A DNA stretch of 48,440 nucleotides, from positions 1-48,440 of IMG/VR virus record IMGVR_UViG_3300037501_000009; one strand, given 5' to 3'. A program made the position numbers and the translations under genes. The DNA comes from a virus (taxonomy: Duplodnaviria; Caudoviricetes). Below, piece after piece: positions 2,691-25,626 of this stretch. The first letter of the stretch is position 1. The number at the start of each line of letters is the position of its first letter. The notes under the pieces were generated by a model. It was not told the origin of the DNA. It worked only from the letters and a program-made list of their open reading frames with translations, and searched no databases.

Positions 2691-2719
2691 TTGACAACTT
2701 CTTCGTGACGTGGTACTCT
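2691..2719 (+). promoter_or_regulatory. sigma70-type promoter with extended -10
   Basis: TTGACA-17 nt-(TGG)TACTCT. Confidence 0.75.
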
Positions 2720-2739
2720 CTGGTTCGAGAGGTGGGAGC

Positions 2740-3003
2740 ATGGCCGAGAAGGTTCCAAGGGTCATCACGAAGGACTGGGTGGACGACGTTGCTCCGACCC
2801 ACGGGCGGACTTCGTGCAGCGATGCGGACCTTGCCAACGCTTCCGGCGGGTGGACCGGGGAGTTCGATGTTCGCACGGGGAAGAAGAAGATCGACTACCC
2901 CCGGTGCTCCCGGTGCTACCTGTTGGACCACGTAGGAGAGAGGATCGACAGCCTCGATTTCGAGGTCCGTGTTGCTGTTGCCTTGGACTGGAAGGAGAAG
3001 TAG
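2740..3003 (+). CDS. hypothetical protein (CxxC)
   Basis: GAGGTGG RBS; begins MAEKVPRV; contains CSRC. Confidence 0.65.
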   Translation: MAEKVPRVITKDWVDDVAPTHGRTSCSDADLANASGGWTGEFDVRTGKKKIDYPRCSRCYLLDHVGERIDSLDFEVRVAVALDWKEK

Positions 3004-3650: not shown

Positions 3651-4691
3651 GTGAGCAGTCTGATTGTTCCGGTCACCCGGATCTCACAGGTTCGTCCGCA
3701 TCCGGCAGCGGATCGGCTGGAGATCGCAGACGTGCTCGGGTGGCAAGTCATCGTTCCGAAGGGAAGGTACAAGGACGGGGACCGTGTGGTGTTCTTTCCG
3801 CCCGACAGCGTTCTGACGCCCGAGTTGGCGGACAGGTTCGGGGCGACGAAGTACCTCGCCAACGGTCGCGTGAAGTGCGCCAAGCTGCGGGGAGAGCCGT
3901 CCTACGGGCTGGTCGCGGATCTCGACGACCCTTCGTGGACCGAGGGAGCGAACGTTGCGGACCACTACGGGGTGACGAAGTTCGTTCCTCCCGTTCGGTC
4001 AGAGATCGATGCGGAGGAGGAGCACGTTCTGTTCGACCGCTACACGTCCATTGAGGACCTGCGGAACTTCCCCAACGTGCTTCAGACGGGGGAGGAGGTC
4101 GTCGCAACCGAGAAGGTGGACGGGACGAGTAGCCGGATCGGGCGCGTGCGCGACGTGGACAGGTACATGCTCGGGTCACATGACATGCAGAGGAAGTCTC
4201 TGCCGCCCGGATCCGAGGAGAGCATCCAGCGGGTGAACTACGCGCTGCCGATGGACCTGTTCGGCGTGCGAAATCTACTCGAAACGTGGGGTTCGTTCGA
4301 GCGCAACATCATCCTGTTCGGCGAGATCTTCGGACCGAAGTTGGGGGACTTCAACTACGGGAGGAAGGCGCGCGATTTCTTGGCGTTCGACCTGATGGCT
4401 GACAGCCGGTACTTGGACTTCGACGTGTTCAAGACCCTCATGGACCAGTACAAGATCCCGACAGTTCCCATCGTGTACCGAGGACCGTTCGACATGGCGG
4501 TCCTTCGCAAGCTGGCGGATGAGACTTCCTCTGTCGGCGGTGAGAAGTACCGCGAGGGTCTGGTCGTGCGACCGGTGAAGGAGAGGAAGCAGGAGTTCGG
4601 TAGGGACTCTTACGCCGTCCGGCGCGTGATCTTCAAGCTGAAGGGCGACAAGTATCTCACGGGAGGCCATACGGACTTCAAGGACGTGTGA
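3651..4691 (+). CDS. RNA ligase, DRB0094/Rnl5 family
   Basis: N-terminal OB domain (HPAADRLEIA..GWQVIV..GDRVVFFPPDS), adenylation motif EKVDGTS, FGEIFG, FDL, REGLVVRP, FKLK. Confidence 0.9.
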   Translation: MSSLIVPVTRISQVRPHPAADRLEIADVLGWQVIVPKGRYKDGDRVVFFPPDSVLTPELADRFGATKYLANGRVKCAKLRGEPSYGLVADLDDPSWTEGANVADHYGVTKFVPPVRSEIDAEEEHVLFDRYTSIEDLRNFPNVLQTGEEVVATEKVDGTSSRIGRVRDVDRYMLGSHDMQRKSLPPGSEESIQRVNYALPMDLFGVRNLLETWGSFERNIILFGEIFGPKLGDFNYGRKARDFLAFDLMADSRYLDFDVFKTLMDQYKIPTVPIVYRGPFDMAVLRKLADETSSVGGEKYREGLVVRPVKERKQEFGRDSYAVRRVIFKLKGDKYLTGGHTDFKDV

Positions 4692-4704
4692 GAGGATAGA
4701 GAAG

Positions 4705-4908
4705 ATGAAGCGGTTTGTGGTCTGCGGGTACAACAACGAACTGATTCTGGCGAAGGTCGAGGCCGTTACGGCGGAGTCGCGGGAGAAGGCCGTCGACAAG
4801 ACGGACGGGGTGAAGGCTTGGGACTACCAGACCGTGATCGTGATGACCGAGGCCGAGGCCCGGAGGATCGGTCGTTGCGGTGAGACGAAGAAGAGGAGGA
4901 AGGCATGA
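4705..4908 (+). CDS. hypothetical protein
   Basis: 67 aa ORF with RBS. Confidence 0.55.
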   Translation: MKRFVVCGYNNELILAKVEAVTAESREKAVDKTDGVKAWDYQTVIVMTEAEARRIGRCGETKKRRKA

Positions 4909-5196
4909 GCGGAAAGAAGACGAGGGGACGGAATCTGGCATCCGACATCAGCCTCTTGGCCGACTTCTACGAGAAGGCGGACAAGAAGCGTAGGTTGGAC
5001 ACCGATCGCATGTGGAAGCGGGTCGAGGCCGGGAAGGACAAGCTGCCGTGCGAGCACGGTCGGTTCATGAACGACCCTCGTCTGCGTGTACTACTCGGAA
5101 CTGGTTCGTGGTCCTGCCTTCTACGACCACTTCAAGGATTGCCCCGGGTTGGTCATCCGTGAGAAGTTCCTCCCGTATCGGTCGTTGACAAAGTAA
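4905..5196 (+). pseudogene. hypothetical gene with probable frameshift near 5070
   Basis: After ...CEHGRFMN the GC3-rich coding signal moves to another frame (5071-5196, TTLVCVYYSELVRGPAFYDHFKDCPGLVIREKF...). The original frame then has atypical codons. Confidence 0.45.
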
Positions 5197-5219
5197 TCCC
5201 GACGCGATAGACAGAACGA

Positions 5220-5705
5220 GTGCAAGGTCGCTACCAGAACAACGAAGGGTACATCCGGGTACTGGTGGGCGGGAAGTTGGTACTGGAGCATCGTCTGATC
5301 GCGGAAAAGTCGTTGGGAAGGCGGTTGAGTAGGAGTGAGGTTGTCCACCACATCAACGGAGACAGGTCGGACAATCGACCAGAGAACCTCAGCGTGTTCA
5401 CAACCGGGAGCGATCATGGAAAGGCACACGGAAAGGTACGAACAGAGAAGTCTTTGATCCGTCTGTTGTGTCCGAAGTGCGGAAAGGAGTTCTTTCGGAG
5501 GGCCTCCAGAGTTCGCTTTGATCGGAGGCAAGGAAGAGAGCCGTGTTGTTCACGATCCTGCGCTACAGGATCGGGGCTTCCTGTTCAGCACGGAACGCTA
5601 GCAGGGTATTTCCGCTGTGGTCCTCCTCGCTGTGCTGAATGCAAGGAAGCGATGCGTCTCTACAAGAAGGCGTATCGAGATAAGCCCCAATCGGCCAGAG
5701 GTTAG
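5220..5705 (+). CDS. HNH homing endonuclease with C-terminal Zn-finger/DNA-binding region
   Basis: EHRLIAEKSLGRRL..EVVHHINGDRSDNRPENL; CPKC...CCSRSC. Upstream TTGACA at 5185. The 3' end overlaps a tRNA. Confidence 0.9.
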   Translation: MQGRYQNNEGYIRVLVGGKLVLEHRLIAEKSLGRRLSRSEVVHHINGDRSDNRPENLSVFTTGSDHGKAHGKVRTEKSLIRLLCPKCGKEFFRRASRVRFDRRQGREPCCSRSCATGSGLPVQHGTLAGYFRCGPPRCAECKEAMRLYKKAYRDKPQSARG

Positions 5706-5755
5706 GCTACCGGACCTTCAATCCGGCAACGGGAGTTCGAGTCTCCCTTGGGGCG
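5684..5755 (+). tRNA. tRNA-Glu(TTC) with non-canonical C33
   Basis: Acceptor GCCCCAA/TTGGGGC, anticodon arm CCGGA-CCTTCAA-TCCGG, T arm GGGAG-TTCGAGT-CTCCC; no encoded CCA. Confidence 0.8.
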
Positions 5756-5775
5756 CTACCCGAAACTCCAAGGAA

Positions 5776-5804
5776 CCTGCAACTGACGGCTCTTCAGTTG
5801 CAGG
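5776..5804 (+). terminator. stem-loop after tRNA
   Basis: Perfect 11-bp inverted repeat CCTGCAACTGA-7 nt-TCAGTTGCAGG; U-tract is weak. Confidence 0.45.
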
Positions 5805-5878
5805 AGAGTTTCGACATGCCTGTTTCGTCGGAATCGAGGATGCCCTAGAACTGACGTTTCTGGTCGTGTTCTTTCTTC

Positions 5879-5907
5879 TTGACAACAGCAAACCGACGTG
5901 GTATGTT
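5879..5907 (+). promoter_or_regulatory. sigma70-type promoter with extended -10
   Basis: TTGACA-17-(TGG)TATGTT. Confidence 0.75.
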
Positions 5908-5929
5908 CGGATCGAAAGGATGAGGTAGC

Positions 5930-6145
5930 GTGGCAACGGGTCGTGAACAGCAGGTGTTGAGGCGGATGGCGGTGTTGGTCCGTCGGTGCAAGGAACCGAC
6001 TCCGCACTACGAAGGGGACTTCGCGAACGGGTACGACATGGGGCAGTCTGGAGTCGGGTCCAGCATGGATGAGATCTTGACCGAGGTCTTCGGTGAGGAG
6101 TGGGAACGCGCCAAGACCGAGGTACAGAAGGAGACCGGACGATGA
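5930..6145 (+). CDS. hypothetical protein
   Basis: GAGG RBS, 71 aa. Confidence 0.6.
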   Translation: MATGREQQVLRRMAVLVRRCKEPTPHYEGDFANGYDMGQSGVGSSMDEILTEVFGEEWERAKTEVQKETGR

Positions 6146-6411
6146 AGGCACGGATCATCAGGGCTGACGGGACGGAAACCGAGGTCGAGCCGAAGAACGG
6201 GACCGACTTCTCCTTGGAGGAGATGCAGAAGATCGTCGGCGGGTACATCGAGATCGTCCACGTTCCTCGTTCTCGGGATCTCATCGTCCTGAACGAGGAG
6301 GGCAAGCTGGAAGGTCTGCCGCTGAACCAGAAGGCGACCGCTCTGTACGCGAACCCGATGGACTGCATCGTGGGCAACGTGCTGGTCTGTCCGTCCGACA
6401 TGGTGAAGTAG
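6142..6411 (+). CDS. DUF3846 family protein
   Basis: LEEMQKIVGGYIEIV...LNEEGKLEGLPLNQKAT...IVGNVLV. Confidence 0.8.
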   Translation: MKARIIRADGTETEVEPKNGTDFSLEEMQKIVGGYIEIVHVPRSRDLIVLNEEGKLEGLPLNQKATALYANPMDCIVGNVLVCPSDMVK

Positions 6412-6420
6412 GAGAGTCCG

Positions 6421-6798
6421 ATGAGTCGTTGGTTACGAGGAAACGAGGTCGAGTTCGTCACCACCATCGAGTTGCCGAAGGTCCGCGATGAGCGGGGCCG
6501 GTTCACGTCGGAGACCGAAGATGTGGAGGTCACGGTTCGTGCCTGCGTGACGCCACCGACGAAGCCGACTCTCCGTGCGGACCCCGACGACTGCGACCCG
6601 GGAGACCCCGGCGAGTTCGAGGTCCTGTCCGTGACCCGGAACGACACGGGAGAGGACATCACGAACAGCGTGGACCACGACCAGTTCGAGGACCGTGGCT
6701 TCGAGCAGGCCAAGGATGACGAACAGGGTGCCTACGAGGCTGCGATGGAAGCGCGGGCCGATGCCGCTCGCGAGCGTGCCTACTTCGGAGAGGACTGA
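6421..6798 (+). CDS. hypothetical acidic protein
   Basis: 125 aa ORF with AGGAG RBS. Confidence 0.65.
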   Translation: MSRWLRGNEVEFVTTIELPKVRDERGRFTSETEDVEVTVRACVTPPTKPTLRADPDDCDPGDPGEFEVLSVTRNDTGEDITNSVDHDQFEDRGFEQAKDDEQGAYEAAMEARADAARERAYFGED

Positions 6799-6826
6799 TC
6801 GCGCTGAGGCGCGAAGGAGGAACGAG

Positions 6827-7381
6827 ATGAAGCAGAGCAAGAGCGAGAGGGCGATGCGGGCGGTCAACGGGGCGCAGGCGGTGGCGGAGCGGGCCGAAGC
6901 CGCCACGACGAAGGCCGTGGCGAAGGCCGAGGGCATCCAGAAGGAGATCGCCACGCTCGCCGAGGGGCACGAGAAGTTCGAGACCGAGATCCGGCAGACC
7001 TTCGAGGCCGGGTGCAAGGCGCTCGACGAACGCATCGACGCTCTGACGGCTCCCCTGATCGAGGAGGGGAAGCGGATCGCTGCCGAGATCGAGAAGGTGA
7101 AGGAGGCGGGCAAGACCGCTCGGGACGAGTTCAAGGCCGCGTCCGAAGCGGTGTTCACGCAGATGAAGGAGGTCACCGACAAGCTGGTGGCGGCGAAGAC
7201 CGAGGCGCAGTCGATGACCGGCGTGTGCGAGGAGTCCGTGAAGCAGGTCCACTCCGCGAGGGGCGTGCTGAAGGACGCGGTGCTTCGCCTGAACGAGGTG
7301 ATGGGTCTGAACGGCGGAACCACGCCTCCGGTGGAGCCGCTGGCCCCGATCCCGGTCGTTCCCGAGGGCAGCGGGAGCTAG
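6827..7381 (+). CDS. coiled-coil protein
   Basis: AAGGAGG RBS; Ala/Glu/Lys-rich heptad-like sequence. Confidence 0.7.
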   Translation: MKQSKSERAMRAVNGAQAVAERAEAATTKAVAKAEGIQKEIATLAEGHEKFETEIRQTFEAGCKALDERIDALTAPLIEEGKRIAAEIEKVKEAGKTARDEFKAASEAVFTQMKEVTDKLVAAKTEAQSMTGVCEESVKQVHSARGVLKDAVLRLNEVMGLNGGTTPPVEPLAPIPVVPEGSGS

Positions 7382-7383
7382 TA

Positions 7384-7611
7384 ATGAAGGTCACGTTCGA
7401 GGTCAAGCGAGCGTCTGTACTCACGGGAGACGGATCGGACAAGATCCTGTTGACCGTGGAGGCTGCTTCCCCGATCTGGCCGTTCGATGCCGGAACCGCG
7501 CATCTCAGCATCGATGCAGCCCACGGGATGGGTAAGCAGTGGCTCGACGAGAACTTCCCCGAACTGGGCACGATGGCAGAGGTCATCCGCACGAGAGGGG
7601 GACCCCGGTGA
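7384..7611 (+). CDS. hypothetical protein
   Basis: Begins MKVTFEVKRAS; tightly packed with neighbours. Confidence 0.6.
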   Translation: MKVTFEVKRASVLTGDGSDKILLTVEAASPIWPFDAGTAHLSIDAAHGMGKQWLDENFPELGTMAEVIRTRGGPR

Positions 7612-8123
7612 GTAGCTACTTCGATGCGATCATGGCGCAGTTCCGGGACATCTCCTTTCTGCCGGAAGAGGACTTCCTCGAACGAGCGGTGGAGATCGAG
7701 ACGCAGGTCATCCGCGAGGTGTCACTGACGACCGGCGACAAGGAGTTCCCCGACGACCTGCGAGAGAAGATCCAGTCTTGCATCGCGGTCTGGTCCTACG
7801 ACTACGAGCAGTACGCTTCGGGTGGTCACCCGCGCGAGCGGAAGATCCCGATCAACGAGAACGCGAAGCACTGGCTTCTGACCATGCGCTACTCGCGCAT
7901 GTGCGAGTCCCTGCACACGCTCTTCCACGAAGTCGCGGTCCGGAAGATCGAGCATCGGTTCGGCGGGTTCTTCTCCGACAGCCCGGAGGGGTTCCTGAAG
8001 GTGCGGGATTCCTATCTCGCGGAGCACGGTGCGTCCCTGCACTACGCCACGGAGGAGAAGCCCCGGTGCCCGGCGTGCGAGGCCGAGATCCCGACGCGCC
8101 CGGGAAAACCGTCCGACGGTTGA
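7608..8123 (+). CDS. hypothetical protein with C-terminal CxxC
   Basis: GTGA overlap start; typical codon usage. Confidence 0.65.
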   Translation: MSSYFDAIMAQFRDISFLPEEDFLERAVEIETQVIREVSLTTGDKEFPDDLREKIQSCIAVWSYDYEQYASGGHPRERKIPINENAKHWLLTMRYSRMCESLHTLFHEVAVRKIEHRFGGFFSDSPEGFLKVRDSYLAEHGASLHYATEEKPRCPACEAEIPTRPGKPSDG

Positions 8124-8166
8124 CCGGTCTTGACAATCTGAACCGATCATGGTACAGATTGCCTTC

Positions 8167-8577
8167 ATGAAGATTCTCGTCGATGCTGACTCGTGGGATG
8201 CGATGCGGGATGCGGCGGAGATCGCCATCGAGGGGGGAGAAGCCTCCCGGTTCTCGGACGTGGTGATCGAGACCTTGGAGCAGAGGATCGACGGGATTCA
8301 GACGGCGTTCTCGAAGAAGGGCCGGGGAGACGTGAGCGAGGAAGTCGAGTCGTTCGTTGTCGACTGGCTGGAGGAAGGATCAAGCAACGCGCCGGAGAAG
8401 CTGATCGACGCGCTGATCAAGTACATGAAGGAAGCCGGGGTCCTCCTTGTCGTTCCGTCCTCGAAAGAGGATGATGGCAAAGATGAGGAAGAGGACTCGG
8501 CGCTGGAAGATGATGAACTGTTCGGGGAAGGTGAACTGGACGAAGACGACGAAGTGCTGGACGACGACGATCTGTAG
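8167..8577 (+). CDS. highly acidic hypothetical protein
   Basis: D/E-rich tail; TTGACA at 8130 just upstream suggests a near-leaderless mRNA. Confidence 0.7.
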   Translation: MKILVDADSWDAMRDAAEIAIEGGEASRFSDVVIETLEQRIDGIQTAFSKKGRGDVSEEVESFVVDWLEEGSSNAPEKLIDALIKYMKEAGVLLVVPSSKEDDGKDEEEDSALEDDELFGEGELDEDDEVLDDDDL

Positions 8578-8848
8578 GCGTGGTCCGTCCTGCGGGACGG
8601 GGTGATACCACTGATCGACAGGATGCAACGATGAGGAGTGAGGTACAGCATGATGCGTTGTCGATCGCCTCCGTGAATGGGACTGATTTGAAATCTTTGA
8701 CGTGCTCGGCTGTGTGCAGGATTGGATAGTACGATGTGGAGTTCAGTCGTTCGAAACCCAGAACTAGGCTCGGCATGGTGCCGGACCGTTCTGGAAGGCA
8801 CTGGCCGGGCAAATACGGATCAGGGGGCGGCGCATGGTCGCCCCCGCT

Positions 8849-8932
8849 GCCCGAGTGGCGGAGCAGGCAGACGCGCCGGATTCAAAATCCGGTGCCCGCA
8901 AGGGCATGAGGGTTCGACTCCCTCCTTGGGCA
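8849..8932 (+). tRNA. tRNA-Leu(CAA)
   Basis: GCCCGAG/CTTGGGC acceptor, CCGGA-TTCAAAA-TCCGG anticodon arm, long variable arm, GGTTCGACTCC T loop. Confidence 0.95.
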
Positions 8933-8954
8933 CTGAGGTCGTGATGTTCGATAC

Positions 8955-9028
8955 GCCCGCATCGTCTAGCGGCCTAGGACCTCGGATTCTCGATCCGAAG
9001 ATCGCCGGTTCGAATCCGGCTGCGGGTG
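8955..9028 (+). tRNA. tRNA-Glu(CTC)
   Basis: GCCCGCA/TGCGGGT acceptor, TCGGA-TTCTCGA-TCCGA anticodon arm, GGTTCGAATCC T loop. Confidence 0.9.
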
Positions 9029-9251
9029 CCGATGGGGAAGCAGGGAGACGCTCGCGACTCCGTGCTTCCAACAACGAGACGTTTGCGACTCCCATCGCCC
9101 GTTCCACGTCGCGGGTCATCGGCGTGGTGGTGGAGACGGCTGGAGGAGTTGCCGGGTGACCGGTCGCTTCGACATGCCCCCCTTCCGGGCCGAGTGATCG
9201 GCCCGAAGGTCTGTTCCCGAGGGCCTCGACCCTCGTTGTTCGTTGATAGTT

Positions 9252-9609
9252 GGGGGTGACACGGTTTCGACGTTTGACTTGATGCGGAGGAGTGCGTGTA
9301 CGAGGGCTGCGGCTCGACAACGCGGAACCTGATAAGAGCGGACGAAGAGTTCGTTCCCCTCCCCGCAGCCGCCTAGAGCGGTTCGCGAGGACGCTCGCTG
9401 GAACTGACCCCGCCTGTGGTCGTCCAGCGGGTGCAATCAAAGCAGGCTGGTTGGTCCCACCTGCCCGAGAGTGGGAGACGAGAAACTGAAGGGCTTTGGT
9501 TCGAGGTCCCCTGCTGGCCGACGCCTCGATTCCGAGATGATGACCAGAAACGCACGTAGTACTCACCGTTGATGTCAGGCGGACGGGGGTTCGACTCCCC
9601 CCACCTCCA
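9252..9609 (+). ncRNA. ssrA: tmRNA
   Basis: 5' GGGGGTGACACGGTTTCGAC; 3' GGGGGTTCGACTCCCCCCACCTCCA; G3.U70 alanine identity pair; tag frame 9338-9376 reads ADEEFVPLPAAA*. Confidence 0.93.
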
Positions 9610-9623
9610 CTACGGAGTAACGG

Positions 9624-9815
9624 ATGGTTTCGAAGCACGAGTGTTGGATCACGAAGAAGGTCGCGAAACTCTCGCGCTGCTTGCGTCGGACGATCTACGA
9701 AGAGTTTCAGGCGGGGGACTCCATCCCGCATCTTGCCCACAAGTACCATTCCCCGGTTCTCGTGATCGAGGAAGTGATCCGCAGGATCATGAACCGCAAG
9801 AGGAGACGAAAGTGA
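9624..9815 (+). CDS. small HTH-like protein
   Basis: 63 aa with pattern [24 protein letters not shown]. Confidence 0.5.
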
Positions 9816-10692
9816 CGGATGTTGTTCGAGCGACAAAGCCATTCGTGAAGTGGCTCGGAGGGAAGCGTCAGCTTCTTTCTCAACTGCTGAACCACGTACC
9901 TGAGCACTTCGACCGGTACATCGAACCGTTTGTTGGTGGTGGAGCACTGTTCTTCGCTCTTGCTGCGAAGATGCTGAACCAGAAACAACCCGAGAGCAGT
10001 CAAACCGAGGAGTGGGAGTCCCCGATGCTTCGGCAGGGGCTGCTGTTCTTGGGGATACAAACGAGCACCTGATCGACACCTACGTCGCGATTCAAGACAA
10101 CGTGGAAGAAGTGATCCGTGTCCTTCAAGGGCATAGGTACGACCCTGCCATCTTCCAGAAGATGAGGGAAACGGATCCAGAGAGCCTGTCTCTGCATGAG
10201 AGGGCTGCGTGGTTCATCTACCTCAACAGAACTTGCTACAACGGGCTGTGGTGAGTGAACTTGAAAGGTAGGTTCAACGCGCCTTTTGGTAAGTACGTCA
10301 ACCCCAAGATCTGCGATTCTGACAACCTTCGGGCTTGCGAGGCTGTTCTACGGAACGCCTTGATGATGGCAACGGACTTCTCCGCTCTTCTGAATGGAGC
10401 GCGGAAGGGAGACTTCATCTACTGCGATCCCCTCTACTACCCGCTATCCGCTACTTCGAACTTCGTGGCGTTCACCAAGCGCGGCTTCTCGGCAGACGAC
10501 CATGTTCGCCTGCGAGACCTTCTCCTCCGGGCTAAGAAGCGTGGGGCGAAGGTCCTGCTGTCGAACTCGTCCGCACCCCTGATCTACGACCTCTACCGAG
10601 ACGGCTTCCAGATCGAAGAGGTCCAAGGCCGACGAGCCGTGAACTCGAAGACCGACCGGCGGGGTTCGGTGAAGGAACTGCTGATCTGGTAG
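9812..10692 (+). pseudogene. dam: DNA adenine methyltransferase (Dam/D12 class), disrupted
   Basis: [35 protein letters not shown]. Frameshift at about 9970-10040, in-frame TGA at 10252, and catalytic DPPY reads DPLY. Confidence 0.9.
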
Positions 10693-10711
10693 GTCTCGTG
10701 ATACGATCCCT

Positions 10712-10770
10712 GACGGTTCCGCCCGCGAACGGGAGTTTTCCCCCCGACCCTCGTCGTGGGCGGGACCGTC
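10712..10770 (+). other. long GC-rich stem-loop
   Basis: GACGGTTCCGCCCGCGA pairs with TCGTGGGCGGGACCGTC (17 bp including G.U pairs). Confidence 0.6.
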
Positions 10771-10782
10771 CGGTCCTCCCAC

Positions 10783-10811
10783 TTGACAACCATCTAACCT
10801 TGTGGTAGCGT
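10783..10811 (+). promoter_or_regulatory. sigma70-type promoter (hen1 operon)
   Basis: TTGACA-17-(TGG)TAGCGT. Confidence 0.7.
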
Positions 10812-10831
10812 CCGGACCTGCGAGGTGTTGG

Positions 10832-12247
10832 ATGTCGCTGGTTTCGATTTCCGTTCAGGGCACGCCAGAGCAACCGGCCACGGATCTCGGGTTCGTTCTG
10901 GTCAAGCACCCGGACAGGATCCGTGAAGTCGAACTACCGTTCGGCAAGGCGTTCGTGTTCTTCCCCGCAGCCGGGATAGAGAAGACGACCGTCTGTCTCC
11001 TGCTGGACGTGGATACCGTGAAGCTGGTTCGCAAGGGGCGAGTGCAGACGATCTTCGACTACGTGAACGACCGGGCGTATACCGCGTCGTCGTTCCTCAC
11101 CGTGGCGCTTTCGAAGGTCTTCAACTCCGCCATCGCAGGGACGTGCAAGGACAAGCCCGAGTTGGTGGACCGCGTGTTCGACATGACCGTGAAGATCCCG
11201 GTCATCGCGAGCAAGGGCGGGGAGGACTCGTTCCGTGAGCTGTTCGAACCTGTGGGGTACACGGTTTCCTGCGAGCGGTTGACGCTGGACGAGAAGTTCC
11301 CCGAGTGGGGCCAGAGCAACTACTACCGGCTGACGCTGACTGGGAAGCAGCGGATCAGGGACGTACTCGAACACCTGTACGTCATGATCCCCGTTCTCGA
11401 CAACCTGAAGCACTACTTCGTAGGCGAGGATGAGATCGAGAAGCTGGTCCGTCACGGAGGGGCGTGGCTCGACAAGCACCCGAAGAAGGTGATGATCCTC
11501 GCCCGGTACTTGGAGTACAAGCGGCACCTCGTTCGCGAGGCCGAGGTACAAGTCGAGGCCGCAGCCCCGCCGACCGAAGACGATTCCGCACCGCTGGTCG
11601 AGGAAGAGACCGAGAAGAAGGAGTCGGAGGTTGAGGTTGAGAAGAGACTGAGCCTGCAAGAGCTACGGACGAAGGCCATCCTTCAATCCCTGACCGAAGA
11701 AGCCGTGACCACGGTGATCGATCTGGGCTGTGGGGACGGGAAAGTTCTGGCCGCGCTTGCACGCGGGAAGGTCTTCATGAAGGTCGCCGGACTGGATGTG
11801 TCTCTCCGCTGTCTTCGGATTGCGAAGGACCGGGTGAAGAGGACCGGATACCCGATGGATCAGGTGACCCTGATCCACGGTGCCCTGACCTACCGTGACC
11901 GGCGAATCGAGGGGTTCGACGGTTGTGTGCTGGCGGAAGTCGTCGAGCATCTGGATCCGCACAAGGTAGAGGCGCTCGAACGTGTGGTGTTCGGGGAAGC
12001 GCGTCCCCGAGTCGTGATCGTCACGACTCCCAACCGGGAGTACAACACGCTGTTCCCGTTCCATTTGCCCAACGGACTCCGGCATAAGGACCACCGTTTC
12101 GAGTGGACGCGAGCGGAGTTCGAAGCTTGGTTGTCTCGTGTGGCAAAGACGTACCGGTACAGCTTCATCGTTCTGGGCGTTGGTGATCCGGACCCGGAAA
12201 AGGGTTCTCCGACGCTCATGGCCCGGTTTGTCCGGGAGAAGGAGTGA
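10832..12247 (+). CDS. hen1: bacterial-type Hen1 3'-terminal RNA ribose 2'-O-methyltransferase
   Basis: N-terminal PATDLGFVLVKHPDR, YVNDRAY, FPEWG, HLYVMIPVLDNLKHYFVG; MTase domain VIDLGCGDG, EVVEH, TTPNREYN, RHKDHRFEWTR. Confidence 0.95.
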   Translation: MSLVSISVQGTPEQPATDLGFVLVKHPDRIREVELPFGKAFVFFPAAGIEKTTVCLLLDVDTVKLVRKGRVQTIFDYVNDRAYTASSFLTVALSKVFNSAIAGTCKDKPELVDRVFDMTVKIPVIASKGGEDSFRELFEPVGYTVSCERLTLDEKFPEWGQSNYYRLTLTGKQRIRDVLEHLYVMIPVLDNLKHYFVGEDEIEKLVRHGGAWLDKHPKKVMILARYLEYKRHLVREAEVQVEAAAPPTEDDSAPLVEEETEKKESEVEVEKRLSLQELRTKAILQSLTEEAVTTVIDLGCGDGKVLAALARGKVFMKVAGLDVSLRCLRIAKDRVKRTGYPMDQVTLIHGALTYRDRRIEGFDGCVLAEVVEHLDPHKVEALERVVFGEARPRVVIVTTPNREYNTLFPFHLPNGLRHKDHRFEWTRAEFEAWLSRVAKTYRYSFIVLGVGDPDPEKGSPTLMARFVREKE

Positions 12248-12250
12248 CAG

Positions 12251-12763
12251 ATGTTGCGAGAGAAGTTGGATCAGTTGGCCGAGAAGTTCACGAAGGACGT
12301 GCTGGCGGAAGTCGCGGTCTTCTGTCAGGAGTTGGCGGATCTGTCAGGGGTCTTCAACGGAGGCCCTGATGGGATTCCCGAGAAGACTGCCGCTCCAGTG
12401 AAGTACAAGGAACGTCGCCTTCCTCCGAAGTGGCGCGACCCGAAGATGCAGTCGGCCTGCGCGAGGTTCGGCGCGCTCCTGCGGAAGATCCCCGACGGGA
12501 AGGTGCGGGAGACCCTCCGCAGCATCGCGAAGGAGAAGGGCGTCAAGGCGGCTCTGGCGGAGGCGAACAATCCTCTGGACCAGAACAAGCCGAAGTCCAT
12601 CGACAAGAAGACGGAGGACCGCCGGGCGCTTCAGAGGCAGTATCTCGGGATGACCCGGCACGCCCCGAAGAAGGTGAGCGAGATCACCAAGCGGATCAAC
12701 CGCCCGCACGGCATGAAGAAGGCGGTCGCGTACCTCAGCCGCTACTACAAGACCAAGGCGTAG
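12251..12763 (+). CDS. basic hypothetical protein
   Basis: 170 aa, AGGAG RBS, two similar basic helical segments. Confidence 0.65.
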   Translation: MLREKLDQLAEKFTKDVLAEVAVFCQELADLSGVFNGGPDGIPEKTAAPVKYKERRLPPKWRDPKMQSACARFGALLRKIPDGKVRETLRSIAKEKGVKAALAEANNPLDQNKPKSIDKKTEDRRALQRQYLGMTRHAPKKVSEITKRINRPHGMKKAVAYLSRYYKTKA

Positions 12764-12766
12764 ACC

Positions 12767-13924
12767 ATGCTGCGCCGAAGCCTGCCGCCAATCCCGGACT
12801 GCCCGCCGGTTCCGGGGAAGGTCGTGTACCGCGTCGTGTCCGGCAGCCATGCCTACGGGACGGCTACGCCCGAATCGGACGTGGACGTGCGCGGAGTGTT
12901 TCTCCCCTATCAGGAGTACATCCTCGGGTTCCTACATCACGTCGAGCAGGTCGAGGCTGACGAGGAGACGCAGTTCGAGTTCCGCAAGTTCATGTACCTC
13001 GCCTCGCAGGCGAATCCGAACATTCTCGAACTGCTGTTCGTGCCAGAGGACTGCCTGATCGAGACCAGCCGCACCGGGAGAATGCTGCGAGCGTACCGGC
13101 ACCTGTTCCTGTCGAAGAAGGTGCTGTTCACGTTCACCGGCTACGCGCATTCGCAGTTGCATCGCATTCGCACGCATCGGAAGTGGCTGTTCAACCCGCC
13201 GACGCACCAACCCGAGCGGGCGGATTTTGGTCTGCCGTCCGAGACGCTGATCTCTCGTGAGCAGAGGGGCGCGTTCTACGTCCTGCTGGCGCATCTTCTT
13301 CGGGACAACCCGGAGATGGAGGCTCTCTTCGAGGCCGTGAAGGAAGTGATCGAGGCCGAAGAGTTCCCCGGGTGGGAAGGCATCGTCCAGAAGCGAGGCA
13401 TCCCGGACGAAGCGATGCCCTACGCACAACTACTGACCGGCGCGTCGGACAACTTCATCGCGGCTCTCCAGCGGGAACAGGCGTACCACCGTGCCGTTGA
13501 CGAGTGGTCGAAGTACAACGACTGGAAGAAGAAGCGCAACCCGGCGCGTGCCGAGTTGGAACGCAAGTTCGGTCTGGACACGAAGCACGCTTCGCACCTC
13601 GTCCGCCTCATGTGGATGGGAGAGGAGATCCTGCGGACAGGGACTCTGACGGTTCTGCGTCCGGATGCGGACAAGCTGCTGGCGATTCGCAACGGGACGT
13701 GGATCGACGGGACCCCGGTCTGTCCCGACACGTTCAACGTGATCGAGCAGTGGGCGCAGGATCAGGAAGTGAAGATGCGCGAGGTCTACGACTCGAAGAC
13801 CTGCGAGCTACCGAAGAAGCCGCGCATGAACGAGATCAACGACCTCTGCCTCGCGGTCATTCGGAACCATCTCGGTCTGCCGAGAGAAGAGAGGCACGAG
13901 AGGTGGTTCGAGGGGATGGACTGA
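12767..13924 (+). CDS. RlaP-type (PF10127-like) DNA polymerase beta-family nucleotidyltransferase
   Basis: GSHAYGTATPESDVDVRGVF, NPNILELLF, DTKHASHLVRL, LLAIRNG. Confidence 0.85.
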   Translation: MLRRSLPPIPDCPPVPGKVVYRVVSGSHAYGTATPESDVDVRGVFLPYQEYILGFLHHVEQVEADEETQFEFRKFMYLASQANPNILELLFVPEDCLIETSRTGRMLRAYRHLFLSKKVLFTFTGYAHSQLHRIRTHRKWLFNPPTHQPERADFGLPSETLISREQRGAFYVLLAHLLRDNPEMEALFEAVKEVIEAEEFPGWEGIVQKRGIPDEAMPYAQLLTGASDNFIAALQREQAYHRAVDEWSKYNDWKKKRNPARAELERKFGLDTKHASHLVRLMWMGEEILRTGTLTVLRPDADKLLAIRNGTWIDGTPVCPDTFNVIEQWAQDQEVKMREVYDSKTCELPKKPRMNEINDLCLAVIRNHLGLPREERHERWFEGMD

Positions 13925-14475
13925 TGTCTGTCAAGAGGCTGCCACTGGCGTTCGGAGACTTGGTAGAGGTCCGTGCTGTCATCGAGCGCCGACGCGAAGG
14001 ACCGGACGGTCGCTCCATCAAGCACGAGCGAGTTTCGTGCGAGCCGTTCGAGGCGTGGGTCGTGGGCAGACGGGCAGTCTTCGACGGCCACATCTCGGGC
14101 GACCCTCCCCGGAGACTCGGCCTGTTCAAGGGGGTTTTCGGGGAACCGAGCGACTACGACCCACGGTGGATGCGGAAGCAGTCCTCGATGAACGTGGTTC
14201 TCGTTCGTCGAGGCATGGCAAACAGGGAGGTCATGGTTCGTGAGGATGACTTGAAGGTCGTCCGTCCGGTGCTGGTTGCCAACTACATCGGACCGTCGGA
14301 AGACCTCATGAACTACCGGCAGAGGACCAAGATGTTCTTCTGCGTTCGTGATCGTCCTCCACCCTACCAGTACGCGAACCGGTACAAGTGGACAGACAGG
14401 GATCGGAGCGAAGAACGACAGAGGATCTACCGAAGGAAGAGGGACGCTCGCGGACGCCTCTTGACAACTACCTAG
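13924..14475 (+). CDS. hypothetical protein
   Basis: TGATG overlap; begins MSVKRLPLAFGD. Confidence 0.6.
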   Translation: MSVKRLPLAFGDLVEVRAVIERRREGPDGRSIKHERVSCEPFEAWVVGRRAVFDGHISGDPPRRLGLFKGVFGEPSDYDPRWMRKQSSMNVVLVRRGMANREVMVREDDLKVVRPVLVANYIGPSEDLMNYRQRTKMFFCVRDRPPPYQYANRYKWTDRDRSEERQRIYRRKRDARGRLLTTT

Positions 14476-14489
14476 CAACGTGGTACGTT
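14461..14489 (+). promoter_or_regulatory. sigma70-type promoter upstream of the tas-HNH-TIGR unit
   Basis: TTGACA-17-(TGG)TACGTT. Confidence 0.8.
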
Positions 14490-14554: not shown

Positions 14555-15535
14555 ATGAGCGAGAAACCCGAGAACCCCAAGGACGAGATCCAGCGAACGA
14601 AGGAGGAGTCGCGCGAGGGCCTGAAGTGCAAGGTCCGCATGTTCTACGACCTGCAACGGATCCGCATTCAGGTCGCAGGCAGAACCTACGACAGACCCGA
14701 GGGGCAGGAACTCCACCTGCACGCGGCGGACGTGGAGATCCTAAAGCTGCGTTCCGGTGCGCTGGAGACGGCGGAAGGGCTGGCGTTCAAGGACGTGCGT
14801 GACCACCTGCGGACGATTCCGTTCTACCGCAAGGTTCTCTCGGACAAGGACCGGTTCAAGGGCGTGGGTCCCGCGATGGCGGGAGTCATCCTTTCCGAGT
14901 TCGACATCAACCGGCTCGACACGCCGAGCAAGATGTGGGCGTTCGCCGGGCTGGCTCCGGTCGCGGCCAAGCGTTGCCGGTCCTGCCACGCTGTCGTCGA
15001 GTTCAACGCGGACACCAACACGTACCACCACACGCGAGAAGCGCCCCGGAAGCGGGACAAGACCGGGGCCGAGATCGAACCCAAGCTGCCGAAGTGCCCG
15101 AGGGCGAAGGATGCTCTGTCCGAGGCCGACGTGTACGCCTCCGGCAAGGCGATGCGCCCGACGAAGGGTCAGAAGTTGCCGTACAACTCGTGGCTGCGGA
15201 CCAAGCTGGTCGGCGTTCTCGGGTCGGTGCTTCTGAAGGTCGGGTCGCCGTGGCGCAAGTTCTACGACGACTACAAGCACCGGAAGCAGAGCGAGGGGTG
15301 GGGTCGGTCGGACGCGCATCGGCATCAGGCGGCGATCCGTTTCATGGTCAAAGCCCTTCTTCTGGAAATCTGGAAGGAGTGGAGGTTCTTCGAGGGTCTT
15401 CCTGTTCGACCGTCGTATCAGGAAGAGTACTTGAAGCACCAACACCACTCGATTGCCGGATCAAGCGAAGGTGGGGGGTACGAAGAAGCGAGTCCGGAAG
15501 TTGCTTCCGAGTTGGCTACGTTGGAAACTGCGTAG
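14555..15535 (+). CDS. tasA: TIGR-associated Nop-domain protein, TasA type (no fused nuclease; IS110 C-terminal-like)
   Basis: Coiled coil (YDLQRIRIQ), KGVGPAMAGVILSE helix-hairpin, SKMWAFAGL, GQKLPYNSWLRTKL, YDDYK, HRHQAAIRFMVK..W..WR..EGLP. No DEDD RuvC N-terminus. Lies next to a dual-spacer array. Confidence 0.85.
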   Translation: MSEKPENPKDEIQRTKEESREGLKCKVRMFYDLQRIRIQVAGRTYDRPEGQELHLHAADVEILKLRSGALETAEGLAFKDVRDHLRTIPFYRKVLSDKDRFKGVGPAMAGVILSEFDINRLDTPSKMWAFAGLAPVAAKRCRSCHAVVEFNADTNTYHHTREAPRKRDKTGAEIEPKLPKCPRAKDALSEADVYASGKAMRPTKGQKLPYNSWLRTKLVGVLGSVLLKVGSPWRKFYDDYKHRKQSEGWGRSDAHRHQAAIRFMVKALLLEIWKEWRFFEGLPVRPSYQEEYLKHQHHSIAGSSEGGGYEEASPEVASELATLETA

Positions 15536-15538
15536 GAC

Positions 15539-16156
15539 ATGATCCTCGGGAAGCCGTGCCGATTGTGCGGGGTCACGCTGACCGAGGAAAACCACTACGA
15601 ATCGTCAACGAACTTACTCTGTAAGAAGTGCTACGGAGAACGAGCAAAGTCTCCTGAGCAACGACGGAAGCAGAAGGAATGGCGAGAGCGAAATCGAGAT
15701 CGACGGCGGGAAATACTGAGGTCGTACAACCGATCTGAGCGCGGGAGAGAAGTACACCGAAGATACATGAAGTCCGCGAAGGGTCGGACACTGATCGCAA
15801 GGTGGAACAGAAGCAAGAAAGCACAGGAAGCCCTTCGTCGGTATCAGGATAAGTACCGACGAGAAAACCCCGGTCCTGTTCTAGCCCGCAGACTGTTGAA
15901 GCTGGCCGAGTTCCTTGGGTACATTCATCGACCAACTACTTGTCAGGTCTGCGGAGAGGCAACAAGACGACTGGAGGCTCATCACGCAGACTACACAAGG
16001 CCATTGGACGTGGAGTGGCTATGTAGGAGATGCCACTTGAACGAAGGACACGATGGATGTTTTCGTAACCTGCCGAGAGCCGTGGTTGATCAGTCACCCA
16101 AACAGCAGCAGCGAGCCGTCACGCGGAAGTCCCCCGTTAGGGCCAAGCGAGTCTAA
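15539..16156 (+). CDS. HNH-family endonuclease with N-terminal Zn finger
   Basis: CRLC..CKKC, basic helix, CQVC..EAHHADYTRPLDVEWLCRRCH. The last ~27 codons run through the first array units. Confidence 0.8.
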   Translation: MILGKPCRLCGVTLTEENHYESSTNLLCKKCYGERAKSPEQRRKQKEWRERNRDRRREILRSYNRSERGREVHRRYMKSAKGRTLIARWNRSKKAQEALRRYQDKYRRENPGPVLARRLLKLAEFLGYIHRPTTCQVCGEATRRLEAHHADYTRPLDVEWLCRRCHLNEGHDGCFRNLPRAVVDQSPKQQQRAVTRKSPVRAKRV

Positions 16157-16442
16157 AAGTCAGAGATGCCCGTGGCGTTCGAGCGAGCCGATGTCCTTCA
16201 GACACCCGATGAAGATGGGCGAGCCGTTCTGTGCAGGTCAACCAAGCGGCCTAAGCGAGCCAGAGTTGTCGTGTCACCCGGAGTTCGTGTGCGAGCCGAG
16301 GTAGTCGAAACACCCGAAGTTCAACAGCGAACCGAAGGTTCAGAGGCAACCAAGTAGTCCAAGTGATCCTACTGCGTAGAGACAACCGGAAACGGCAAGC
16401 GAGCCGATGATGTTGGGTCACCCGGGCAAGAAGAGCGAGCCG
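16074..16442 (+). repeat. TIGR array: 10 x 36-nt units, each edge repeat / 9-nt spacer A / loop repeat / 9-nt spacer B
   Basis: GCGAGCC-like cores at exact 36-nt intervals (16075, 16111, 16147, 16183, 16219, 16255, 16291, 16327, 16363, 16399, 16435), alternating with G(T/A)CA(C/A)CC cores 18 nt later; the sequences between them are unique. Confidence 0.92.
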
Positions 16443-16457
16443 TGCTAGAATGCGTTC

Positions 16458-17252
16458 ATGAGCTACCAACTGATCCAGATCCACAGCAAGGAGAAGGGGG
16501 CGAGTGGACCGAGGCCCCCGGGGAAGGCAGTCGACACCCTCGTCATCCACACGACGGACACGATGGGCATGTCCCGGTGGACCTCATTCGCCACGATGAT
16601 GAAGTACATCAAGTGGGCAGAGGACCATGACGACGGAATCGACCACGAGACCGCAACACGGCTGCGGGAGTTCATCTCCGGAGGGAAGGAGATGCCGGAC
16701 GGTCTGCGGCTCTGCACGACCGCTTCGTACACCCCGGCAGAGACCTCGTGGCACTACTGCGTGTCGTCCGTGACCCAAGCGACTCTCGTGTGCGTTGGGG
16801 AGATGGTGCCTCCCGAGTTGCAGGCCCACCACATCGGGCCGATCTGCCCTACGGGGAACACGAACAAGAGAAGCATCGGGATCGAGAACTGCTACCCCGG
16901 AGCGGTGGCGACTGCACCGAACCCGAAGCGACCGCAGGACCCGTGGGCACGGAACATCGTCGAAGCGAAGACGATCTACCACGGATGGGGATGGGAGGAT
17001 GACCCGGTTCTCCTGCCCGATCCGAACGGGAAGAACCGCTGGTACGTTCCGTACCCGGAGACCTCGTTCCTCGCTCTCCGCGATCTGTGCATCGACCTCT
17101 GCAAGCGTTTCCCCATCGCGGCGATCTGCAACCACTGGCAGTTCGCCAAGTCAAAGCGGATCGATCCGGATCCACCGATCAGCCTCGTCCGCCTCCGGGA
17201 TGAGGTGGGGAAGGCCGTCGGCAGGACGTTGCAGGACATGCCCCCGAGGTGA
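16458..17252 (+). CDS. N-acetylmuramoyl-L-alanine amidase (Amidase_2), endolysin-like
   Basis: LVIHTT, SWHY, AHHIG, NKRSIGIE, H..KRIDP Zn-ligand pattern. Confidence 0.8.
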   Translation: MSYQLIQIHSKEKGASGPRPPGKAVDTLVIHTTDTMGMSRWTSFATMMKYIKWAEDHDDGIDHETATRLREFISGGKEMPDGLRLCTTASYTPAETSWHYCVSSVTQATLVCVGEMVPPELQAHHIGPICPTGNTNKRSIGIENCYPGAVATAPNPKRPQDPWARNIVEAKTIYHGWGWEDDPVLLPDPNGKNRWYVPYPETSFLALRDLCIDLCKRFPIAAICNHWQFAKSKRIDPDPPISLVRLRDEVGKAVGRTLQDMPPR

Positions 17253-17601: not shown

Positions 17602-18165
17602 ATGACCTCAGTACCTCAACCGAGCATCAACATGCCTTGTCCAGAAGGTTGCGGAAGAATCCTCCGTACACGACAGGGGGTACGAAAACACCTACGAGTT
17701 GTACACGGTATCGTCGAGTACGAACGAGAGTGTACCTCTTGCGGGAAGAAGAAGCCCGCAGGTTGTTTCGGAGTTACCGGAAGCCAGAAGAGAAGCGATG
17801 GTAGTGTGGCTTTCTACTACCGTTCTATCTGCGATGAGTGTCGGACGGAGGAGAATCGAAAGAGACTGGAGAAGACAGCCAATCGTCCAGAAAGCCATAG
17901 AAGACGGGACAAGAAGAAAGGAGTCGCGCTCCAGTTTGGACTGTCATTAGCCGAATACGATGCCGCATGGAGAGACTTCCTGATCAAGCAGGGAGGGGTG
18001 TGTGCGGTCTGTAACAAGAGGAAACCGGAGGTCTTGGATCACTGCCATACGACAGGAAGGTTGAGAGGCGTTCTCTGTCGGCAGTGCAACTCAGCGGCGG
18101 GGTTCCTCATGGATGACTCGAAAGTCGCAGAACGACTTTCGAGGTACTTGAAGGGAGGGCAGTAG
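17602..18165 (+). CDS. endonuclease VII-like nuclease with N-terminal Zn fingers
   Basis: QGGVCAVC...LDHCHTTGRLRGVLCRQCN; C2H2-like CPEGC..HLRVVH. Confidence 0.85.
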   Translation: MTSVPQPSINMPCPEGCGRILRTRQGVRKHLRVVHGIVEYERECTSCGKKKPAGCFGVTGSQKRSDGSVAFYYRSICDECRTEENRKRLEKTANRPESHRRRDKKKGVALQFGLSLAEYDAAWRDFLIKQGGVCAVCNKRKPEVLDHCHTTGRLRGVLCRQCNSAAGFLMDDSKVAERLSRYLKGGQ

Positions 18166-23650: not shown

Positions 23651-24151
23651 TTGTTCCAACAGACCGACGGTGCTACGTTCGTCAGGTTCGAGTGGGACCC
23701 GGGAGCGAAACTCGCGATGAGCGCCTTGATACCTGCCCCCCACATCCACGTACCTCTGCCGGTCCTCTTCGACAGCAGGGTAGAGATGGGGTCCAAGATG
23801 GTCCTTTTTGCTGTAGCGGCTCGTGGGTGGGTGGCGGAACTGCTAGACCTCAAGTACGCTGACATCGCACAAGAACTTGGGCTACTGGAAAAGGAAGTTC
23901 GTGCCCACCTTGATTCTCTGTGCGGTGTTGGATGGCTGAAGGTTACGAAGAAGACCGATTCGAGTTTCTGTGTGACTTTCTCTTCGCCCGGTCCTTCACA
24001 CAACGAGGTTCTCTCCCGATGCGCGGAGTACTTCCTCCGACCGGTTAGAACCGAGGACGAACTTCGGATGTTGAGATCCGAGATACCTCTGACTGATGCA
24101 GTAGCCGAGGCTGCCGAGAAGTGGTTCGACTCGTTCCTTGGAGAAGAGTGA
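23651..24151 (+). CDS. winged-HTH-like protein
   Basis: YADIAQELGLLEKEVRAHLDSLCGVGWL. Confidence 0.55.
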   Translation: MFQQTDGATFVRFEWDPGAKLAMSALIPAPHIHVPLPVLFDSRVEMGSKMVLFAVAARGWVAELLDLKYADIAQELGLLEKEVRAHLDSLCGVGWLKVTKKTDSSFCVTFSSPGPSHNEVLSRCAEYFLRPVRTEDELRMLRSEIPLTDAVAEAAEKWFDSFLGEE

Positions 24152-25626
24152 TGTCGCAGGACAAAGAGAGAAACGAGGAAATCCCTGTTCCTCCCTACGT
24201 TCAGAACCACCTTGCTCTGATCTACGACGCAAGACTAAGCAGCGAAGAGAAGGCATTTCTTCACTCCTTAGCATCTTGGTGTGGTCGTAGGAAGGCGACC
24301 TACGTCTCGGAAGAGAGGATCGCGGAAATGCTCAACATCAGTCGGTCTTCTGCCTACCGACTGATGTCCTCTCTTGTGAAGGCAGGGAGAATCAGGGTAG
24401 TTCGACGAGGGAACGGAAAAACGGCGCTCCGAGAGGTGGTTCCTCCGGAGGAGATCTACCCTATCGAGGTACTGCACTTCCCCTACTTCTTTCTCCGGTA
24501 CGGTGCCTCTCCGGAGGAGAAGTCGATCATGCGCTCGCAGGCCCCGATGACCTTGGAGGTTCGTGAGAGGGTGAAGAAGTGGGTCGAGGACCGAGAGAAG
24601 AAGAAGTACGACGACGACTGGGAAGAACTGAACGGAACAGAGGTCCCAAAAATGAGACCTCTGAACGATACCGAGGGGACCAGAGGTCCCAAAAATGAGA
24701 CCTCTGAACCCATCAGAGGTCCCAAAAATGAGACCTCTGAACCCATCAGAGGTCCCAAAAATGAGACCTCTGAACCCACCAGAGGTCCCAAAAATGAGAC
24801 CTCACACATGTCAGAGGTCCCAGAAATGAAGCCTAAAGTAGATCCAGATCCGGATCTAGTAGATTCAGTCCGGAAAGAAGTAACGTCAGTCGACGACGTT
24901 GACGTGACGGGACCCTCGTGTGAGTTGGGGACCGCCGGAATACCTCAAGACATGAGTAAAGGAGATTCCGCCGAAGTAGGTGGTATGCCTTCATTGTCAA
25001 GCGGAGAGGACCGGACGGTCCCTTCTACTTCGACTCCGGTGGTGCGAGTTCAGGTTGTAGACGCGGCTGTGCAAACGGCAATCGCGAAGGGCAAGGCAGT
25101 ACAGGCAGAGAAGCTGAAGAAGGTGCTGGATCGTGGTCGTCGCAAGGAGGCAGCGAGAGTAGCTGCAAGGGAGACGCCTACGGAGGTACGAACGCAAGGA
25201 CCGGAGGACGTGGTGCTGTCAGGCAAGTGCGCCAAGATTGCCGAGGCGGAGGCGCTGTGGAAGGCCGAAATGACGGCCAAGTACCCTACGTTCGAGCACG
25301 CTCCGTGGACAGGTCGAGAGGTGGGTCAGATCAGTACCCTCCTTGACAAAGTGTCTGGACAACTGGTCTTGACTGTGCTACGGTATGTGGTACGGAACTG
25401 GGAGGACATCGAGGCTCGGTATCTCAAGAAGAACGATGGGTGTCCGGGACTTGGTTTCGCAGTGAGGTTTTTCAGTTCCCTGTCTTTGGAGGCGCAGAAG
25501 TGGAACGAGAGCCGGGGGACGGAGAGCGTGGAGCAGGAGTGGAAGCGGTGGTTCAAGGAGAACCCCGGCAAGAGTCCTCCGTCGGAGTTGGTGTGGAGGT
25601 ACGATCAGGCGAAGCAGGCCCGGTAG
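24151..25626 (+). CDS. phage replication initiator (N-terminal wHTH, internal iterons)
   Basis: SEERIAEMLNISRSSAYRLMSSLVKAGRI; RGPKNETSEPI repeats; directly upstream of the DnaC- and DnaB-like genes. Confidence 0.75.
   Translation: MSQDKERNEEIPVPPYVQNHLALIYDARLSSEEKAFLHSLASWCGRRKATYVSEERIAEMLNISRSSAYRLMSSLVKAGRIRVVRRGNGKTALREVVPPEEIYPIEVLHFPYFFLRYGASPEEKSIMRSQAPMTLEVRERVKKWVEDREKKKYDDDWEELNGTEVPKMRPLNDTEGTRGPKNETSEPIRGPKNETSEPIRGPKNETSEPTRGPKNETSHMSEVPEMKPKVDPDPDLVDSVRKEVTSVDDVDVTGPSCELGTAGIPQDMSKGDSAEVGGMPSLSSGEDRTVPSTSTPVVRVQVVDAAVQTAIAKGKAVQAEKLKKVLDRGRRKEAARVAARETPTEVRTQGPEDVVLSGKCAKIAEAEALWKAEMTAKYPTFEHAPWTGREVGQISTLLDKVSGQLVLTVLRYVVRNWEDIEARYLKKNDGCPGLGFAVRFFSSLSLEAQKWNESRGTESVEQEWKRWFKENPGKSPPSELVWRYDQAKQAR
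24638..24834. repeat. iteron cluster, probable replication origin
   Basis: CAGAGGTCCCAAAAATGAGACCTC(TG) at 24638, 24681, 24714, 24747, 24780 and a degenerate copy at 24812; internal palindrome CAGAGGTC/GACCTCTG. Confidence 0.8.

Follow-up and report, generated by a model that had tools for sequence, protein, structure and literature searches.

A probable homing endonuclease gene, accompanied by a tas 3' end of foreign codon bias, between tasA and the TIGR array of a phage

Analysis of the window, that is the whole stretch of 48,440 nucleotides of phage DNA under study and the entire assembly, indicated that the HNH nuclease gene lying between tasA and its TIGR array probably encodes a free-standing homing endonuclease that travels with a recoded tas 3' end, as a cassette aimed at tas and resembling the WHO elements of yeast. 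The layout of the locus, the codon shift at the 3' end of tas, the varied genomic contexts of the nuclease family and the same architecture in a pair of related loci with and without a nuclease were all observed. Coordinates are given in Table 1.

Table 1. Features of the tasA-HNH-TIGR locus and of its immediate flanks
Feature	Position	Strand	Remarks
Promoter-like site 5' of tas	14461-14489	+	TTGACA ... TG-extended -10; regex match
tasA	14555-15535	+	stop TAG ending at 15535
tas 3' segment after the RFM motif	15347-15535	+	foreign codon bias; left boundary uncertain, about 15317-15347
HNH ORF	15539-16156	+	ATG at 15539, TAA at 16154-16156; 205 aa
HNH-type (His-Me finger) nuclease proper	15539-16078	+	N-terminal zinc finger, long helical arm, C-terminal AHHxDY...WLCxxCH domain
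Dual-repeat TIGR array	16076-16457	+	truncated first edge repeat, 10 full 36-nt units, one trailing half-unit
HNH ORF tail	16079-16156	+	25 residues and stop; reads through array units 1-2, dual coding/repeat
Full array units (n=10)	16080-16439	+	unit 1, 16080-16115; unit 2, 16116-16151
Amidase_2 gene	16458-17252	+	PF01510, E 1e-11; directly 3' of the array, neighbour outside the system

The TasA protein is a Nop-domain Tas lacking an N-terminal nuclease and carrying a Cys/His-rich insertion (C141, C144, H159 and C181). Its profile matched TaTasR (9MTY, 6e-18) and SpTasH (6e-9), both matches being confined to the Nop part, and the ten best Foldseek matches of its predicted model (pLDDT 88.8) were all Tas structures. 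A fused RuvC or HNH domain is absent: the alignment to TaTasR pairs profile position 35 with residue 119, and the coiled coil of the model begins at residue 16. Residues Y288 and H295 align to Y289 and H296 of SpTasH, which are described as processing residues (PMC13421893). No Tas homologue was found when genome contigs were searched with the close profile, and none of the 14 Tas homologues inspected by eye, the longest included, out of 120 listed carried an HNH domain. In two Tas proteins of the collection, P0063 and P0018, the reading frame continues through their own arrays. Since a nuclease-free TasA has been shown to bind DNA and to repress transcription (Xu et al., preprint 10.64898/2026.09.09.750476), the TasA of the window needs no cutter, and TasA and array alone would serve for RNA-guided DNA binding or repression.

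The array was parsed as box C, a 9-nt spacer, box D and a 4-nt gap, with 36 nt per unit, which is the spacing used by TIGRFinder. Box C read CCG in 15 cases, CCA in four, and CCT and TCT in one each; the half-units of the array began with CC in 20/21 cases, compared with at most 8/21 anywhere else in the window, and box D was AG in 14/20. The 36-nt units, alternating edge and loop repeats and 9-nt spacers are those of a dual-repeat TIGR-TasA system. The solo Nop-domain protein, the unit length and the truncated first edge repeat likewise agree with the TIGR-TasA loci described by Faure et al. (2025, PMC12045711) and in the Xu preprint, from which the window differs in having a separate nuclease gene between tas and array, in having a neighbouring frame that reads array units and in having a box D that is mostly AG and not UG. 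The 10 units, taken in both orders, had no match with three or fewer mismatches in the window outside the array; among the fetched loci a single match with two mismatches was seen and is taken as chance.

The original prediction that the HNH ORF starts 3 nt past the tas stop was confirmed (TAG, GAC, then ATG, position 15536 being the first base beyond the stop), as was its claim that this frame runs through the first two array units, both of which lie wholly inside the ORF. The spacing is less special than it appears because 3-nt in-frame gaps occur at four junctions among the 41 listed genes of the window, and the same holds for units 1 and 2, because guide units within coding sequence are already known for tas itself (Xu et al., preprint 10.64898/2026.09.09.750476). 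The ORF ends in unit 3, in a degenerate box C that supplies the T of the TAA. This stop region (16152-16156) derives from the sole box C without CC and looks like a repeat decayed into a stop; past it, the next in-frame stop lies 66 codons downstream. The codons of the HNH gene are indeed richer in A than those of tas, with A at the third position in 55/205 codons compared with 25/326 (p=4e-9), its GC3 is about 0.57-0.58 compared with 0.82, and its codon usage is foreign to the genome. Judging from the promoter-like site upstream of tas, a single transcript likely covers tas, HNH and array; the site is one of eight copies of the pattern found in the window by regex, of which a consensus scanner listed the 17496 copy only. 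The eight copies of the TTGACA...TG-extended -10 pattern are at 2691, 5879, 8130, 10783, 14461, 17496, 19715 and 29731.

In its gene content, which includes helicase, primase, RecA, RuvC-like and RNA-repair genes, three tRNAs and a tmRNA, the window resembles part of a large phage genome; an RNA-repair and translation cluster (3651-13924) holds an RNA ligase, the three tRNAs, the tmRNA, Hen1 and a RlaP-like nucleotidyltransferase. Three further mobile-type nucleases are present in this phage. An EndoVII-like free-standing nuclease (17602-18165) has the same GC3 as the HNH gene, 0.57, and its own promoter-like site at 17496; an HNH ORF (30452-30919) lies inside a probable group I intron (30308-30986, read by eye, with no Rfam match) that splits a gene whose second part resembles phrog_17226; and an ORF at 45190-46113 combines NUMOD3 repeats with a TnsA-like nuclease domain. 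Upstream of the helicase, the HTH-containing ORF 24121-25626 contains a tandem repeat (24681-24829) of about 4.5 units, each 33 nt long, nearly identical and with an inverted repeat inside; these are possibly origin iterons.

The HNH protein matched phrog_2340 over residues 5-169 (E 2e-23). Its model (pLDDT 96.8) found its closest viral fold matches in phage HNH/EndoVII-like proteins, and Foldseek returned no match in the PDB at E<=0.001. The closest relative, P0130, is 55% identical and comes from a contig of 1286 bp; a viral scan with P0130 found no close locus. The P0130 alignment stops at R180 and the first repeat starts at precisely this point, so that the 25 residues of the tail are read from the array. 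The window protein has 39 residues after the CxxCH motif, compared with a family median of 11, and at least 39 are found in 11/118 members. The first truncated repeat directly abuts the tas stop codon in 12/81 tas loci; the window HNH gene has AGA where such a repeat-abutting stop would sit, so that loss of a stop is plausible, but P0130 likewise has R there, which counts against certainty. The tail over units 1 and 2 is likely a by-product of the join between the nuclease gene and the first repeat. The last His of the HNH motif has the spacing H-x4-H, found in 5/118 family members compared with 85/118 for x3, and because this spacing is atypical the activity of the protein is not assured.

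The family is large, with 15,186 clusters at E<=0.001, and its members lie in varied contexts. Among 68 scanned ORFs upstream of family members there were 11 SSB, six major head, five exonuclease, three RecT/Erf, two DNA polymerase and two terminase genes. In Bacillus phage Moonbeam, where the protein is annotated as a homing endonuclease, and in Staphylococcus phage RuSa1, where the CDS is joined, members have pieces of DNA polymerase on both sides; one further member is embedded in a DNA methylase. Because Rfam gave no intron match in loci L100, L105 and L126 or in the window, introns were called from annotation or by visual reading. The nuclease domain with its own DNA-binding region, the homing members of the family, the patchy presence and the foreign composition of the gene are those of a free-standing homing endonuclease, and the suggestion that the HNH gene is a selfish endonuclease invading the locus thus gained support; such an endonuclease may, as also suggested, spread the TIGR cassette.

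The codon shift is not limited to the nuclease gene. Over the last ~60-70 codons of tas the usage moves toward that of the nuclease, GC3 falling from 0.90 in the 143 codons before the RFM motif to 0.62 in the 36 after it (p=3e-4). This drop ranked first among 77 distinct loci, with the nuclease-bearing loci L033, L069 and L028 at ranks 2, 4 and 11; the rank test (p=6e-4) is partly circular, the RFM breakpoint having been picked from the L023/L033 pair described below, and by hand count gives ~0.01 without L033. No drop of this size occurred in an independent set of 88 further tas loci (maximum 0.26), and that of the window is the largest in 165 distinct tas loci, tied with L033. A free changepoint fell at about codon 254, with 0/1000 permutations as strong, and among 24 genes of the window the shift was strongest in tas (0.87 to 0.57, p=6e-7). 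The GC3 of the segment, 0.60, matches that of HNH, 0.57. From its composition the segment would be a substitute end carried by the cassette, and it retains Y288 and H295. Drops were also seen in the nuclease-free tas loci L397 (0.26), L056 (0.24) and L066 (0.22), which may be cassettes having lost the nuclease, or noise. An orphan tas end is absent behind the window HNH gene (best score -1.5 bits, compared with 4.6 bits for the L033 control); therefore the downstream homology for homing would be the array itself, or the orphan has been lost. No nuclease-free allele of this phage was found, and no read joint skipped the HNH gene in X1, which is the only region-spanning sequencing run and possibly the source of this DNA, while runs X2-X4 cover short pieces.

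The same architecture was seen directly in the loci L023 (without nuclease) and L033 (with nuclease), which are 95% identical (342/359 nt) up to RFM and retain only 16-19 of 30 identical nt per 10 codons past it. The order in L033 is tas, recoded end, a HNH_3+HTH gene, 30 nt, and an array of the same type as in L023; those 30 nt are the last codons of the L023 tas, identical, and represent the orphaned old end. The peptide of the recoded end is 64% identical to that of L023, compared with 98% before RFM. This direct proof of a state with and a state without nuclease comes from another HNH family, the L033 HNH being unrelated to that of the window, and from a Tas ~55% identical to the window's. 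In the arrays of the pair (L023:1632-1964 and L033:1000-1334) the seven units nearest to tas differ; from the eighth unit onward, as far as L023 extends, the two are identical, a hint of a conversion tract or of polar turnover.

Nucleases overlapping the tas stop were found in L028 and L033 (HNH_3+HTH) and in L069 (GIY-YIG+NUMOD3). Those of L028 and L069 have a GC3 below that of their tas; no orphan tas end was detected in L069, and the L028 contig stops 12 nt past the nuclease. The four nuclease-bearing tas genes required four changes on the tas tree and formed a single group in 0% of 200 bootstrap trees, in a tree from one search with an incompletely converged bootstrap and with 4/81 loci left out for missing the motif or enough flanking residues. 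None of 31 loci of relatives of the L033 nuclease had tas nearby. Two further loci showed unusual tas 3' regions. In L408 a low-GC3 ORF with repeated zinc fingers and no recognised catalytic domain (2413-3477) lies 46 nt behind tas, with no array seen directly behind tas; it matches only the DNA-binding parts of nuclease families and was left out of the nuclease count. In L030 a second, diverged tas 3' end (1089-1330) follows tas by ~170 nt, with a short hydrophobic ORF in between but no nuclease, while its sister L038 has a single tas end.

The frequency of nucleases behind tas was also compared with that in other flank ORFs. The first set gave 3/61 compared with 3/283 (p=0.07), and this was not confirmed by the second set, in which clear nucleases were found behind tas in none of 98 new groups (combined p=0.69). 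The Pfam scan of the second set covered 21/24 adjacent ORFs (three duplicates left out) and 129/257 other flank ORFs, from a crude gene caller that returned nothing for some high-GC loci; non-adjacent HNH genes in L361 and L399 stand outside the p=0.69 table, and their inclusion would weaken the enrichment further. With 3/159 loci overall, tas could not be demonstrated to be a nuclease hotspot and would be a target at an ordinary rate.

Replacement of a gene end has a precedent in fungal mitochondria, at atp6 of Allomyces. In the WHO elements of yeast, at FBA1, an endonuclease gene is accompanied by a resistant 3' end of the target gene lying upstream of it, and homing replaces the target's 3' end and leaves the former one downstream (Coughlan et al. 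2020, PMC7282813). The L023/L033 pair has that layout; in the window the foreign tas 3' end lies 5' of the nuclease, as judged by composition, while the orphan of the original end, present in L033, is absent. The elements further differ in the protein, which is an intein-like LAGLIDADG-type in yeast and a phage His-Me finger nuclease at tas, and cutting in the window is putative. We therefore file the window as working like a gene-end-replacing element and not as a proven member of that class. The Seg and Mob genes of T4-like phages lie between genes and encode nucleases whose cleavage target is an adjacent gene (segG/32, mobE/nrdB); they are often promoter-less and coupled to the upstream transcript (PMC2988022), and in HEG-islands different nuclease classes replace one another at one location (PMC10448857). 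Their targets are core replication or structural genes and not an RNA-guided system, and a substitute gene end with an orphan is not described for them in the accessible text of PMC2988022 and PMC10448857.

In the proposed mechanism the cassette would consist of the substitute tas 3' end and the nuclease gene. In co-infecting phages the nuclease would cleave, close to the conserved HRH-AA-R(F/Y)M codons, those tas alleles that have no nuclease behind them. With the carrier as repair template, the resistant substitute end and the nuclease gene would then be copied in between tas and array, with recombination homology provided upstream by tas and downstream by the orphan end or the array. Tas would remain whole and the array linked, and adjacent guide units could be co-converted. 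The cutting, the target site and the homing itself are inferred. A bolder and rather unlikely extension is that several homing families independently target the tas 3' end and that homing drives TIGR mobility, the array repeats serving as downstream homology and guide units being swapped between co-infecting phages, with nucleases parked in frame behind tas becoming raw material for new Tas-nuclease fusions.

The main rival to the homing cassette is a mobile-type nuclease of a generic kind that settled behind tas but does not target it; the low GC3 would then have another source, such as an embedded promoter or a co-acquired flank of a one-off recombination. This explanation agrees with the missing orphan end in the window, with the absence of enrichment behind tas, with the drops of 0.22-0.26 in nuclease-free loci and with the location of the promoters of several T4 homing genes, which lie inside the 3' part of the preceding gene (PMC2988022). 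But the GC3 shift begins at the very motif beyond which the tas end of L033 is demonstrably foreign, and the drop is extreme both across the 165 tas loci and across the 24 genes of this genome, so that we consider this explanation unlikely.

The other branch of the original prediction, a two-component system or split TasH in which the HNH protein would bind the TasA-tigRNA complex and cut guide-specified DNA in trans, fared badly and is very unlikely. Tight coupling in one probable operon, the nucleases directly behind tas in three other loci, the TIGR locus within 3 kb of one of 80 family loci (L158) and the intact appearance of the HNH motifs speak for it. The synteny check, the first of two observations that together had been proposed to refute the partner model, found close tas relatives without this HNH: in L004, L007, L008, L011 and L016 the array begins within ~40 nt of the tas stop, and the phrog_2340 family was found in 0/264 other fetched tas loci (0/94 and 0/170). 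Conversely, tas was near one of 132 family loci (1/80, then 0/52 further), and in this one, L158, where a TIGR locus lies within 3 kb, an SSB-like ORF, the commonest upstream context of the family, parts the array from the HNH gene. The nucleases behind tas moreover come from three families that are unrelated, and each family has DNA-binding modules of its own. SpTasH (Salicola phage CGphi29, PDB 9W03 and 9W04; PMC13421893) shares with the window the Nop fold, the Y/H processing residues and an HNH-type domain at the locus; its HNH is fused at the N-terminus, as is known for TasH (PMC12045711), whereas the window nuclease is separate, lies downstream of the Nop protein, carries a zinc finger and a helical arm of its own and has no sequence match to SpTasH. 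The family profile had four PDB matches at E<=10, none of them TasH, though the library contains TasH, and TasH was not among the best 50 of 139 Foldseek ranks of the HNH model, though a remote likeness is possible. With no conserved linkage to tas across relatives, a split TasH is not supported by the sequences compared.

Since tas and HNH are in frame with one stop between them, amber read-through of TAG-GAC-ATG would give a Tas with a C-terminal HNH, which we regard as extremely improbable. TAG ends 13/41 listed genes, several of them with a second in-frame stop within two codons; 3-nt in-frame gaps recur in the window as noted above; no amber tRNA is among its three tRNAs; and the L028 and L069 nucleases are out of frame at the tas stop. 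Weaker evidence comes from longer family members, where two matches among 8000 candidates, of lengths 465-2000 only, had no Tas part.

TIGR-TasA systems, free-standing phage homing endonucleases and gene-end replacement are already known separately; added here are the proposed gene-end-replacement mechanism at tas, the pair with and without nuclease and the three nuclease families. Among the main texts of the searched literature, which was largely open-access, no paper linking TIGR-Tas to homing endonucleases and no description of substitute gene ends in phages was found; supplementary locus tables, such as table S1 of Faure et al., may list such loci.

A homing cassette at tas carries a caution for the mining of TIGR loci for editors, since a nuclease beside tasA is not to be read as the missing effector. 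The L023/L033 loci provide a ready pair of putatively sensitive and resistant alleles. The origin and change of TIGR arrays is an open question (PMC12045711), and homing through tas is a possible route for moving them. The locus suggests that parasites treat the gene of an RNA-guided system as they treat a core phage gene and strike it at the helix that is most conserved; the invader's retention of the tigRNA-processing residues implies that tas is under selection in these phages.
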